Assembly: GCA_964016885.1 (NCBI GenBank)
Contig: OZ024740.1
Location: 277,512,001-277,576,000 of the forward strand
DNA length: 64,000 nt
Direction: 5' to 3'
Source of the DNA: Eledone cirrhosa
Lineage: Eukaryota
Part shown: piece after piece, positions 3,172-63,634 of the stretch
Position numbering within the stretch: the stretch's first letter is position 1
Layout: the number at the start of each line of letters is the position of its first letter
Notes under the pieces: generated by a model
The model's database searches: none
What the model was told of the DNA's origin: nothing
Seen by the model: the letters and a program-made list of their open reading frames with translations, nothing else
Translations under genes and position numbers: made by a program

Positions 3172-3509
3172 CAATAAATTGTGTCCAGATGTATCACTGA
3201 ATTTTCGTTTGCTTTATACTACCTACACTGAACTCTGCTGAATATTGAGTGCTAATTTTGGCATACCGCCTATGGAAGCACCATAGCTACTATTATACAC
3301 AAGTATATATATATATATATATACATATATATACATATATATATGTATATATACATATATATATATATATATATATATATGGAAAGTTATATTTAAATTG
3401 TTGGGTTACAACTAGTAAATATTAATAACTGATATAAAAGCACTCGACAAGTATTTGGAGTATATTTACGATATTAAATAAATGGAAACTATATTTATAA
3501 AACCATATT

Positions 3510-3575
3510 TATTTCATTATATATATTTCAGGGATATCATATTAACAATATGCTATGCCTTCCTCAGACAAAATA
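3510..3575 (-). ncRNA. minimal type I hammerhead (family A)
   Basis: Reverse complement of 6278-6343. Confidence 0.8.
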
Positions 3576-4925
3576 CAATATAAACAGTTTTATAGATAAA
3601 TAGATTTGACATACCGTACAACATCGACTTGTATTTGAAAAGTTGAATTGGCAGTGAAAAAATTGTAAACAGAAAGAAAGAAAGAGAGAAAAAAAGGAAA
3701 GAAAGACAGAAAACGCAGAAAAAGAAGAAAAAGAAGAAATGCATGGAACAAAATAGAGAGATGGAAAGATAGATAAAGAGAAGAACTTCATGTAAAGAAA
3801 CAGAGAGAGATATATATATAGAGAGAGGAAATAGATAGAGATAGATATATATATAGAAAAATATGTAGTTGGACATCCGTTGAGTAAACGTATCAATGAT
3901 ACATTTATTTATTTATTTAGCTCTAGTATTAATGTAAGGGCGATACATGTGGTTAGGAGAGAAACCAGCTGTTATATATAGAGAAAAATGAAAAGTAACC
4001 AGACATAGGCGAGGCATAAAAACCCTATGTTTTAATGTAGAAGTATTAATATGTATAAATATGTATAAAAAACCAGGCACTATATTGAAAATATCAGTAT
4101 TCCTGAATGAGACACGTATCCATAATGTGTGAAAAGTAATGATCTTATGTTTAGTTTTAAAAATTCATATGTTTATATGATAACTACAAACATCGATGTG
4201 AATTTACATGATCAACTCTGCAAACCCTAAGTTCACACGGAAAACATTCTCATTGTGCTATAAAAAATTTAAGTATACACATATGTGTATATATATACAC
4301 ACATATATATAGAGTCTATATTACTACTATTCTTGTCTTTACTCTACAAGATTATCTATCAAGCAGAAATAGAGAGCAGATTTCAATATATTAATAAAAA
4401 ATATATCAGAACCAAAAACCAAAAAACAACAATAATAATAATAATAATAATAATAAATAAATAATAATAAAATAGAAAACTAAAAAATATTACGAAAAAA
4501 ATATTACATATTAAAAATATTACATATTAAAAATAAAAATATTAGAAAATACTACAATTATAAAAATAAACCACAAAGATCAACCCTTCAAAATTAATTG
4601 ACAATATATTGCCAAGTTCATTATAAACATCAGAGTCGAAAACAGATAAAGCTAAAAATTATTTATCAAATCGCATCTAGCAAAAATCATTTCAAAAAGT
4701 TTAGGGTGCCCATTTGGTCTACATGTGTTCTTATATTTAATATAGAAGTTTATCTAGTGTAACGTTTATTCGAAATATTTGGAGCATCAACTTTTAGGGT
4801 AGTTTAATTTTTCATGAAGAATGTTTAAATAAAAATAAAAATAAAAATAAAAAGAAGAATAAAAAGAAGAAATCGAAAGATTTATCGGCTATTTTCTCAA
4901 ATAATTATAAATCAAACTAAATATA

Positions 4926-5238
4926 CTACATTTTAAATTTAAATTTATATTTAAAAGTTGAGTTTAATCTATGTTTGCAGCAACTGAATAAATTTGTCCG
5001 TAGATTAAGGGAATTTTTAGATTTTAGTATAAAGAATATCTCCTCTGCGCAGAGGTCACATGTCTCAGAGGATGAATTAAAAGGAATCCCTCTTGAGACT
5101 ATATTCCAAGCCGTCGAATATCTAACGTTATCTAGCTTAAGTTGCCAGAGTACGCCTGATAGTGCCGTTGAAGATTTTTTGCTTGGATCTGTGAAAGAAT
5201 TCTTGTGGTTATTATAGCGAAGTTTAAATTCCGTCGAT
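4926..5238 (-). pseudogene. PLE GIY-YIG C-terminal fragment
   Basis: STEFKLRYNNHKNSF...CDLCAEE...CCKHRL, nearly identical to the end of the 42735 ORF. Confidence 0.9.
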
Positions 5239-59773: not shown

Positions 59774-59846
59774 GTATATATATGTATATATGTATATATA
59801 TATATATATATATATATATATATATATATATATATATATATATATA

Positions 59847-62800
59847 TAATGTATAATAAACAATACAATATAATTACCTCATTACCAGAAGTTTCCCGAA
59901 TAAGATGAATACAAGAAACGTCCTCACTCATTCGTCGGCCGAGGCAATTTTAAACATAGTGGAATATTTGAAAAATCTCCTCAAGAAAGGCAAAAGTTTA
60001 ACGGGCAAAAAAAATATATAAGTAAAACTAATGCAAGAGATATATAAAAATAAAATAAGGAAATATAGTTATGGTATGTGTATAAATGTGTGTATATTCA
60101 CTCACAAATGTACATATGTGTGTATGTACAAATGCATGTGTATAGTGAAACAATGTGTGCGTAAGTACATATATGAGGGAAAGCATATCAGTGTATGTGT
60201 GACCACAAATACGTATATAATATATGTTGAAAAAGAAATTGTAAGATAATAGAGTTAACGTACATCCAGACTCGGGTACTAAGGATTGAAGTATATACAC
60301 ACACAAGTATGAAAGCACGCGTATAAACACACACACACGCGCAACCACATACATGCCAGTGATATACACAGGGAAGGGTGTGTATCAGTCAAAGCAGTGT
60401 CAGTAAGAATATCGATACATATATAAAAAAGAAAAAATATATGAGAATAAAAAAATGTTTAATCAAAGAGAAAGTAAGAGGGAGGCGTTATCAATTATAA
60501 AGTAACACTAGAAAAATAGAAAACAAACATAGGTTAGTACGTACACATATATATATATATATAAATATATATATAAATACGTACAGACAAAATCACATAC
60601 ATGCGTAAATACATGCGTACAAAGGCGCGCATACATACACACGAAGCACATATATATATATATAGGCACATATACATGTAGCACACGAACGCACACGACC
60701 ATATATATATATTTATATACACACATACAAACACATACCTATATATATATATATATATATATATACATATACATACACACATACACACACACACGTATAT
60801 ATATGTAAAAAACATAGATATAAAAACACACATACACACACATATGCACACACGCGCACATACGAATGCAATCGTATACATATACAAACAAGCACACACA
60901 TACATGAACGCTCACACGTATAGATACACATTAAAACCAGCCGTATGAATAAATGAGTACAAATTATACGCAAGTAAACATACATAAGAGCGGCTGAGAG
61001 ACAACAGAATATATCTGGAGTTGAAAACGCAAGTGACAAGTGATATCACGTAGAGAAAGAAAAGGGGGAAGTAAAATGTGTGGAATTGTGAAGATATAAG
61101 GTAAGTGAATAAAAAAAACACAGGGGGGGGGGGGGTCACTGGTGGATGTGAAGTAAAAATAAAGTTAAAAATAAAAATAAATTAAATCAGAAAGAGAAGT
61201 CTGTAAAGAGGGTAATTTAAAGAAAGTGAAGAACAAGAGTTTATGTAGGATCAGTATCTGAAAGTGAGTTAAGTTTATATGCGCTGGAAAGCAAGTGTGA
61301 TTTCATGTGTGGGCAACTGGTGAAAATATCTGTTTTTGCATTTAGGCAGGATTTTGGTGATTTAAGGTTCTGTAAAATCCAATATTTTTCACTTATGCAG
61401 AGTGCGCATCTTCTTGTTCCTCTTGTAAATTCTTTAGATTTGTTCAAAATTGACCAATCTAATTTATATTGAATACCTTGGTCTTTCAAATCCCATATTC
61501 TACTAGCCAGAGCTGTTGTAAATCTTTTTGCAGGATGTCGGAAAGATGTCAGCAAGATGTCGAACACATATAAACCTAGATCTGCCTACTGCTTCTTATA
61601 AACCGTACCATAAACCTAATGAAAATTTAAAATATATAAATAAAGGCTCTTGCCATCCTCCTATAGTTTTTAAAAATCTTATCCCTAATATTAGCCGTAG
61701 GATCTCCACCGTCTCTTCCTCAGAAGCTATTTTCAATAAGGCATCCCCCTACTATAATAAAGCCCTTCAAAATAGCGGATTTAGCGAACCGATTAAGTAC
61801 ATACCCAATAATACTAACTCCTTTAAACATAATAATAGGAAAACAAAAATAATCTGGTTCACACGCCACTACTCTTTAGCAGTTAAATCAGATGTAGGCA
61901 AAAAATTCCTAGAGCTCATAGATAAACATTTCCATAGAACATATAATACTATAAGATCATCAATAGAAACTGTGTCAAAATCAGCTACTCCTGCGGTCCC
62001 CCTATTAAATCTTATATCCTCAATAAGAAAATACCCAGAGAACATCAACATTTCTCCTGTAGAGTCAAAGGTGAATGCCCATTACAAGGTAAATTCAACA
62101 CCAAAGCCATTGTATATGCGGCTACAGTGACAACCACCAGCAACAACCCACCAGCCACCAGCGAACGAAAATGTGGGTATGCCACAAGACAAATTCAAAA
62201 CTCGTCATTACTCACATGTTGCATCTTTCCGACATCCAGAAAAAAGATTTACAACAGCTCTGGCTAGTTATAAATCCTTATATCTTCACAATTCCACACA
62301 TTTTACTTCCGCATTTTCGTTCTCTACCTGATATTACATGTCACTTGCGTTTTCAACTCCAGATATATTCTGTTGTCTCTCAGCCGCTCTTATGTATGTT
62401 TACTTGCGTATAATTTGTACTCATTTATTCATACGGCTGGTTTTTTAATTTATATCTATGCGTGTGAGCGTTCATGTGTGTGTATGCGTGTTTGTATATG
62501 TATACTATTGCATTCGTATGTGCGCCTGTGTGTGTATATGTGTGTGTGTATGTGTTTTTTATATCTATGTTTTTTACATACTTATATATACGTGTGTATG
62601 AGTGTATGTATATGTATATATATATATATATATATATATATATATATATATATATATATATATATATATATATATATATATATATATATAAGTATATATA
62701 TATATGTATCTGTTTGTATGTGTGTATATATATATGTATGGTCGCGTCCGTGCGTGTGATATATATATGTGCCTATATATATATGTGCTTCGGTGTATGT

Positions 62801-63634
62801 ATGCGCGCCTTTGTATCTATGTACGCATGTATGTGCTTTTGTCTGTACGTATTTATATATATATTTATATATATATATGTTTGTACGTACGAACCTATGT
62901 TTATTTTTTTCTATTTTTTCGAGTGTTACTTTATAATTGATAACACCTCCCTCTTACTTTCTCTTTGATTAAACATTTTTTTATTCTCATATATTTTTTC
63001 TTTTTTATATATGACACTGCTTTGACTGATACACTCCCTTCCCTGTATATATCACTCGCATGTATGTGGTTGCGAGTGTGTGTGTGTTTATACACGTGCT
63101 TTCATACTTGTGTGTACTTCATTCCTTAATACCTGAGTCTGGATGTACGGTAACTCTATTATCTTACAATTTCTTTTTCAACATATATTATATACGTATT
63201 TGTGGTCACACATACACTGATATGCTTGCCCTCATATATGTACTTACGCACACATTTTTTCACCATACACATGCATTTGTACATACACACATATGTACAA
63301 TTGTGAGTGAATATACACATTTATACGCATACCATAACTATATTTCCTTATTTTATTTTTATATATCTCTTGCATTACTTTTACTTATATATTTTTTTTT
63401 GCCCGTTAAACTTTTGCCTTTCTTGGGGAGCTTTTTCAAATATTCCACTGTTTAAAATTGCCTTGTCCGACGAACGAGTGAGGACGTTTCTTGTATTTGT
63501 CTTAATCGGGAAACCTCTGGTAATGAGGTAATTATATTGTATTGTTTATTATACATTAAATTTAGCTCTGTAACTTACATGGAGCACTCTTCACTCCTAT
63601 GACTTTTTCAATTTTCAACGGAAGCTTCAATACT
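59847..63634 (+). mobile_element. PLE family E (Hydra-type) two-arm insertion
   Basis: Tailless reverse arm 59847-61549 with ORF end (CALCISEK...CPH); forward arm about 61570-63634 (YKPYHKPNENLKYINKGSCHPP) with deletion at about 62269 and tail. Confidence 0.87.

Follow-up and report, generated by a model that had tools for sequence, protein, structure and literature searches.

Why should a Penelope-like element (PLE) insert as two inverted arms, with a terminal tail on one arm only? The question is raised repeatedly by a stretch of 64,000 nucleotides from Eledone cirrhosa (GenBank assembly GCA_964016885.1, contig OZ024740.1, positions 277,512,001 to 277,576,000), hereafter the window, which is rich in PLEs and comes from an AT-rich animal genome of 3.0 Gb. 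Insertions of endonuclease-bearing (EN+) PLEs have been described as partial tandems with an inverted, 5'-truncated copy and a one-sided tail (PMC8557442, PMC3846280), and the origin of the inverted ends and the tail is stated to be unsolved (PMC8557442, PMC11167929). We found that the two arms of an insertion almost always end differently. The genomic copies lead us to favor, with moderate confidence, a reading in which the (TA)n target is cut and its two 3' ends prime on a single RNA, at two tandem start signals.

The window inventory was built by self-comparison and arm annotation. We use T for a tailed arm and N for a tailless arm, and the same letters for the sites at which they end, the tail being the stretch from N to T. 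A two-armed insertion has its arms head to head with their 3' ends outward, and family labels (A-K, M and N10-N39) are our own. Targets were (TA)n runs of changing length. The window contained 20 two-armed PLE insertions, 19 of which combined one T with one N arm, as proposed by an initial annotation of the window; it also contains single-armed insertions, to which the rule does not apply. Among the exceptions previously listed, the family D insertion at 46497-47320 is real: it has no terminal tail, only an internal read-through tail (46910-47020) followed by a partial second stem, its right arm is ~25 nt short, and the next insertion begins at 47333. The arm placed at 37419, which had seemed to end deep in the untranslated region (UTR), is not an exception. 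It is the minus-strand N arm of a Hydra-type family G insertion (37421-38858), and its end at 37421 falls 9 nt short of the GCTC..GAGC stem that family G carries in its tail; the plus-strand T arm has a ~90-nt tail that ends at ~38858. The tail at 40139 that had been assigned to it belongs to a plus-strand family K arm (38860-40139), with its own hammerhead and tail, that abuts the G insertion. The ends do not all face (TA)n: 38858 lies in AT-rich element DNA, and most tailed ends of family B adjoin (CT)n or (TATC)n.

Outside the window, the genome sample comprised 1.0 Mb in eleven blocks, one beside the window and the others at round coordinates. Eight of these others lie on the four largest contigs, which were chosen after a first sample proved them rich. 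Inverted repeats adjoining microsatellites were detected without a library, and the asymmetric ones then gave a 3'-end library. To pair arms, we used their orientation, family and identity and ignored tail state. Extra loci came from searches with family A, B, C, G, H and M2 queries ending before the tail, from which we took the best 30 of 40-50 matches each plus additional matches; a genome search with family I gave no matches. Together these yielded 333 pairs, of which 310 were distinct. The tally excludes 17 window pairs, 44 library-defining block insertions, 14 pairs from a tail-selected search, 17 N/read-through pairs with their tailed end not at a microsatellite, 15 pairs in which one end could not be scored, and five that we discarded manually (two false, and three whose "tailed end" continues into the body). 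Four pairs were recoded as T/N after inspection, and two T/N and two N/N insertions (symmetric repeats outside the library), then one N/N and one T/N, were added by hand. Most long G and H insertions were left unscored, and the search with H itself gave 2 pairs.

The rule extended well beyond the window, with 196 T/N, 4 T/T and 4 N/N among 204 scored insertions (96%, interval 92-98%). Random combination would give 102/51/51 (chi-square p about 1e-39), so end types do not combine at random genome-wide. The untargeted blocks alone contributed 56 T/N, 2 T/T and 2 N/N of 60, and pipeline pairs with strict flanks 181, 4 and 1. The pipeline-scored T/N set spans 24 families, and a strict microsatellite was present at both ends in 181 of its 193 pairs across all families. 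Thirteen of the 14 resolved tail-selected insertions were T/N and one was T/T. Among 121 unpaired terminal arms in the blocks there was a single outward-facing couple of the same family, itself T/N. Single-armed insertions are real, as 14 T and 4 N arms of families A, B and C have TA at their 5' side. Two of the four N/N exceptions (C1_200 30050-30519 and C3_250 8621-9515) have an internal tandem tail, as if both primers had started at site N on different copies of the pseudo-long terminal repeat (pLTR) in a multimeric RNA. Five symmetric inverted repeats adjoining microsatellites have ends that are all alike (C2_200 77901-78420, C4_50 92843-93141, C2_300 25011-26375, C4_50 81175-82011 and C3_100 53034-54915), and one of these five kinds has 51 ends, all alike. 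They were excluded from the tally and, if PLEs, would be further exceptions.

The initial annotation attributed each insertion to two priming events, and two separate copying events, each from one end of the target, are well supported by the non-random end types, by independence from arm length and by stubs made of tail only. Two automatic callers of long and short arms were dropped because they miscalled window insertions with indels or nested repeats, and reference mapping was used for families A, B and C. When 74 insertions of these families were mapped on single natural copies (omitting 4 low-coverage and 1 N/N insertions), the tail was on the longer arm in 30, on the shorter in 28, and the arms were equal in 16 (30 versus 28, binomial p 0.90). 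In insertions with a shorter tailed arm, each arm has sequence that the other lacks, and thus neither can be a fold-back copy. The tailless arm often reaches the predicted start site exactly while its tailed partner is short. Seven tailless arms oppose stubs of 13-88 nt consisting only of tail, including that at 14877-14894 in the window, and one more was seen separately; such stubs have no sequence in common with the partner arm. Head-to-head junctions (n = 58) overlap by 1-18 nt in 40 cases, mostly 1-4 nt, are blunt in 1 and carry 1-12 extra nt in 17. Overlaps of 1-3 nt can be chance, and the earlier proposal that the complementary DNAs (cDNAs) are joined by microhomology gains little from these numbers. 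Equal-armed insertions have near-palindromic centers.

In family A, the two arms of an insertion have 25 private variants in common and 39 differences, and in 23 of 27 cases the nearest arm proved to be the partner, which points to derivation of both arms from one source copy. The signal is less clear in B, E and M2. One family A insertion has a 390-nt internal tandem duplication common to both arms (50486-51256 and 55224-56017), which implies that it was already in the template.

Both ends are tied to stems in the leader of Hydra-type families, where the order is hammerhead, site N, stem 1, site T, stem 2 and start codon. Tails here are 38-165 nt, and the hairpin is a conserved stem motif of 4-5 bp, such as the ACTC..GAGT stem in the 88-nt family A tail at 3381-3468. 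In stem-bearing families, 90 of 114 tailless ends lay 4-11 nt before the RCTC..GAGY stem, with a mode of 7-8. Measured to the first stem base from the last base outside the TA run, the tailless window ends at 6384, 16043, 16797, 49521, 58024, 59773 and 59849 lie ~3-10 nt before the RCTC stem; the 0-6 nt of the initial annotation fits if the 2-5 nt common to the TA run are assigned to the element. As for its early-stopping minis, small fold-backs of family J do end 13-20 nt ahead of the stem in some cases, and 5-9 nt ahead of it in others.

A second RCUC..GAGY stem lies 5-9 nt past the tailed end in 7 of the 13 Hydra-type families or subfamilies with read-through copies, which run on past the tail into the following unit (A 9 nt, A2 9, E 6, G 6, N29 8, N30 5 and N27 7), compared with a background rate of 6%. 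Hence, the tailed end lies before a second stem copy in many Hydra-type families, and the description of the two ends as falling on either side of one hairpin is too simple for them. In N10 and N34 the second stem is 18-19 nt past provisional tailed ends. The second stem was predicted beforehand for family E and was closed in 6/6 fetched read-through junctions; its pattern had 393 matches, with one spacer in nearly all of the 100 listed. In families H and J, with 44 and 157 matches, RCTC occurs at the expected distance, and the GAGY closure is not clean. The two signals of A and E resemble a direct repeat of about 40 nt. A readable leader was available for 40 of 77 metagenome loci, several of which are near relatives, and these had at least two stems in 24, one in 10 and none in 6, whereas shuffling the leaders gave expectations of 0.36, 6.8 and 32.8. 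Their order is again hammerhead, stem, stem, start codon, with a stem spacing of mostly 55-74 nt. A 3' copy was present in 22 of the 35 metagenome loci checked for it. Of these 22, 11 reach the contig end and one is a tandem, and 7 of the remaining 10, whose 3' ends are readable, stop 0-4 nt ahead of stem 1 or stem 2.

Immediately 3' of site N, the bases had a mean of 3.1 nt in common with the TA run, as opposed to 1.1 nt at control positions, and at least 4 nt were common to it at 48% of site N ends versus 6% of controls (208 ends from 28 families, where ends within a family are not independent). Read-through copies have TA-like bases after site T in A (ATGTAT), C (ATATATA) and E (TATCTA), and TTTT in J. 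At the other extremity, 17 of 48 arms in family A and 22 of 56 in family B have their 5' ends in a pile-up located 175-197 nt upstream of N. In family B the pile-up is 31 nt after TATAAAAG, at an initiator-like (Inr-like) motif; the nearly full-length window arm 25351-29428 has TATAAAAG at 29162, Inr-like ACAGTT at 29193, a hammerhead-like core read by eye at ~29237-29268, and a 43-nt tail at 29386-29428. We infer from this arrangement that the pile-up in A and B probably marks a transcription start. The (CT)n or (TATC)n runs that family B tailed ends abut (15301-15331 and 29429-29442 in the window, and B loci L001-L030 and L131-L160) match a short (CT)(TA) tract just past the tail in L007. 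They are often longer than this template, owing to slippage during priming or to later expansion.

Under the reading we favor, in which both target ends prime on one RNA, a double-strand cut would be made in the (TA)n target and each stem would position one reverse transcriptase (RT) active site, probably those of two halves of a protein dimer. Pairing of the TA primer would involve 2-5 nt of RNA located about 5-10 nt upstream of the stem. With each site present a single time per RNA, one N and one T arm would result. The T-primed cDNA would either stop short of N, leaving a tail-only stub, or displace the N-primed cDNA and recopy the same RNA. Both cDNAs would extend toward the RNA 5' end, their 3' ends would be joined head to head by end-joining repair, and single-armed insertions would be events that lost one cDNA. 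The open reading frame (ORF) would be copied only from RNA reading on into the next leader, and this would account for partial tandems being the active form (PMC3846280, PMC2377424). More tentatively, and at slightly less than even confidence, we propose that such two-signal double priming is obligatory, with a duplicated leader RNA element docking both RT-endonuclease dimer halves on one RNA, which would let both ends of a double-strand cut be extended. The docking element would be the GCUC..GAGCAC stems for the Hydra clade and different repeated motifs for other clades.

Several observations weigh against the proposal of double priming on one RNA. Eight of the 204 insertions and one T/T of the 14 tail-selected ones break the rule. 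In D, H, J and N32 the second stem has imperfections or fails to close, and Neptune-like families B, C and M2 obey the one-tail rule without an RCTC..GAGY stem, their sites N and T having short shared motifs only (ATATCG at both in M2 and a loose repeat in C). Stem folding z-scores were near zero, and in metagenome leaders the stem sequence is mostly fixed, with the same G-C outer pair in 50 of 56. Support for structure thus comes mainly from the A-U, G-C, U-A and GUUC/GAAC variants of this genome, where paired changes give ACTC/GAGT, GCTC/GAGC, TCTC/GAGA and GTTC/GAAC. Family C has no 5' pile-up (3 of 72), in C and G the arms of one insertion resemble each other no more than they resemble arms of other insertions, and arm likeness elsewhere could come from later gene conversion. 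An anole PLE starts in vitro at RNA not homologous to the cut DNA, unlike the TA-likeness found here (PMC11167929). Finally, the proposal is drawn from genomic copies, in which one RNA and two RNAs on an asymmetric dimer look alike.

The latter arrangement, in which both target ends prime on two separate RNAs and the dimer halves are forced to different sites, strikes us as unlikely, although it is the best of the alternatives. It would account for arms that overlap with no need for strand displacement, arms would match as well if the RNAs came from a single active source copy, and T/T and N/N cases do exist. On the other hand, a 96% share of T/N would call for some inherent asymmetry, the near-identical stems in tandem on a leader are more simply two docking sites on one RNA, and stubs that extend no farther than site N fit collision on a single template. 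Earlier PLE papers proposed self-priming or endonuclease resolution (PMC8557442, PMC3846280). Resolution, with the endonuclease recognizing a repeated motif and trimming a longer DNA intermediate at both sites, seems less probable still: RT start sites in vitro coincide with genomic tail ends (PMC11167929), the TA-likeness just 3' of ends fits primer pairing, and the paired stem changes fit a single-stranded fold. Least credible is one priming event whose cDNA or antisense transcript folds back and is recopied up to the hairpin to make the tailless arm, as self-priming (PMC3846280), the near-palindromic centers of equal-armed insertions and the likeness of arms within A, B and E insertions might suggest, because it leaves the second stem at the tailed end unexplained and is largely refuted for tail-short cases by the 28 of 74 insertions in which the tailless arm has up to several kb extra and by stubs with nothing in common with their partner; central deletions could rescue some of these, yet tailless arms often reach the start site exactly.

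Motifs and layout assign the insertions to EN+ PLEs. Partial tandems (L324, L343, L177/L176 and L007/L359) read as inverted arm, pLTR, body and pLTR, while L351 and L366 are tandem units. In the family E unit of L351, a single open 716-aa frame begins with Met and contains RT and EN motifs. Head-to-tail family E arrays have a 3.53-kb period (C1:91476605-91487270 and C1:437200340-437210965; L351), and many copies of family A are identical over 156 nt; both families look recently active. A hammerhead core, a predicted ribozyme, was found by pattern in A, C, J, M2, K and most metagenome leaders, and the pattern missed B (read by eye), G, H, D, F, E and I at the places scanned. The best 150 of 188 Rfam matches on the window comprised microsatellite look-alikes and one tRNA-like match, with no hammerhead among them. 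The family C C-terminus matches Pfam GIY-YIG (E 1e-6), Pfam gave no match for PLE frames other than family C, and a search against solved structures gave nothing below E 0.55.

Window frames at 42765-44309, 20579-21813, 37749-38524 and elsewhere match, at 34-65% identity, a Hydra-type protein taken from a related locus. Families E and A have RWR and DKT, and 100 aligned relatives have R in 100, W in 98 and K or R in 71 or 26, then D in 98, K in 100 and T in 94. The CxCX5C linker is CNCRDRSKC in A, CNCRNRVDC in G and CNCPDRSIC in E, with cysteines invariant in the alignment; linkers of H and J were read in part. The Hydra-type families have CxxC and CxH in the EN domain and no CCHH, and A, E, G, H and J insert into (TA)n. 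RW(K/R), DKT, CxCX5C, CxxC/CxH, hammerhead and (TA)n insertion all resemble the Hydra clade as described in PMC8557442. That clade is described there as generally less than 3 kb, whereas the E unit is 3.53 kb and family A, with a long AT-rich UTR, is about 3.7 kb. Given the word "generally", we do not treat this length as excluding membership. The clade section of PMC8557442 has no stem-loop or hairpin, and its supplement had 0 matches for both words. A Neptune-like protein query matches window positions 26612-28591 and 32221-32463. Neptune and Nematis are marked by DKG, a CX2-5CxxC linker and CCHH in the EN domain, and the corresponding motifs of the Neptune-like families are DKGG and CNDSRCGTC in B, DKGS and CGRSNCGTC in C, and DKSG and CIDKKCITC in M2, with CCHH seen by eye. 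The M2 frame at L366 70-4056 (1329 codons) has a long asparagine-rich repeat insert, which resembles the N-rich inserts described in PMC3846280.

Tails of 30-40 nt were given for earlier complex PLE insertions, compared with 38-165 nt here. Relative to those accounts, the asymmetry is now counted, independent of arm length, and tied at both ends to tandem stems. The anole Poseidon protein PAc cuts and extends both target strands in vitro, was modeled as a dimer and acts on AT-rich targets, and its RT starts at two internal sites matching tail ends, with no homology to the target reported (PMC11167929). By eye, a GAAAG..ACAAC motif occurs twice in the RNA template printed there, the second time at +106 to +115. 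PAc belongs to a different clade. The paper draws no connection between its two start sites and the paired arms of an insertion, and the signal that it names is a single AC-rich stem-loop rather than a duplicated one. The portions consulted of PMC2377424, PMC13282606 and a retrozyme preprint (10.64898/2026.07.22.740005) had no bearing on end rules. One-sided tails and two in vitro start sites are thus known, while a strict one-tail rule, an end-type count and twin stems were not found in the literature searched, which lay outside subscription papers, figures and bioRxiv supplements.

Twin priming of L1, attributed to Ostertag and Kazazian in 2001, reportedly has both cut target ends prime on one RNA, giving an inversion. 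It is said to use the poly(A) and a variable internal site, with two cDNAs that cover non-overlapping RNA. In PLEs, by contrast, both sites are fixed, internal and 40-165 nt apart, and the arms usually overlap, stubs excepted. PLE insertion would therefore work like twin priming, although not in its L1 form.

Within the window, the tail can be on either arm, as first described. It is on the long arm in the family A insertion at 3381-6384 (T arm 3381-5236 on the minus strand, N arm 5237-6384 on the plus strand), in an A subfamily insertion at 18901-22753 (T minus, with RT/EN remains; N plus), in family B at 23702-29428 (N minus, with an internal deletion; T plus) and in family A at 41249-44587 (T minus, with a 572-aa RT/EN frame at 42735-44453; short N plus). 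It is on the short arm in Neptune-like family B at 10297-11650 (T minus, N plus), a B mini at 15040-15300 (N minus, T plus), an A subfamily insertion at 16797-18335 (N minus, T plus) and Neptune-like family C at 32052-33867 (T minus; N plus, with the GIY-YIG domain). A second family C insertion (29890-30933) has a long T arm on the minus strand and a short N arm on the plus strand. The M1 insertion at 14032-14894 pairs a long minus-strand N arm with its 18-nt plus-strand stub. The N arm is on the minus strand and the T arm on the plus strand in a family I mini (49606-49959), an A subfamily insertion (50248-56304) and Hydra-type family H (59849-63634). The strands are reversed in an A mini (45971-46470), an E mini (49404-49521), family F (56864-58024, with a tail of about 160 nt) and family D at 58518-59773, where the T arm is a tandem with read-through at 59077, the N arm is short, and the stem variant is GTTC..GAAC. 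A J mini fold-back (45278-45457) has an N arm ending ~20 nt before the stem and a plus-strand T arm.

Other repeats accompany these insertions. An exact 590-nt N34 monomer (11691-12280) runs from its own tailless site to the next and is flanked by TA runs. At 44609-45266 and 15400-16023 there is a ~650-nt element bounded by a 65-nt direct repeat, with a J-family arm directly after each copy. Two fragments of long interspersed nuclear elements (LINEs) with an RVT_1-type RT lie at 7019-9400 (Pfam 7779-8477) and 52461-54600, the second inside the A subfamily insertion at 50248-56304. A dispersed repeat of ~190 nt, probably a short interspersed nuclear element, occurs at 21894-22087, 1236-1441, 17456-17562, 18515-18704, 40243-40424 and 49153-49360; the first copy is inside the insertion at 18901-22753, and others follow PLE ends in fetched loci. 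Two direct repeats of ~285 nt at 13408-13963 have a tRNA-like stretch (Rfam tRNA at 13826-13897, E 1e-5).

A near-strict one-tail rule that holds regardless of arm length removes the simple fold-back model of PLE insertion, and the two short conserved stems provide exact positions to mutate. Given intact-looking Hydra-type frames and an in vitro assay for another PLE, the mechanism is directly testable. Among retroelement RTs, those of PLEs are the nearest relatives of telomerase, an enzyme in which an RNA element likewise fixes the start of copying. If true, the double-priming rule would bring the inverted repeat, the tail on one side, the requirement for partial tandems and the TA bias under one explanation, and would represent an integration route distinct from target-primed reverse transcription with second-strand synthesis in LINEs.

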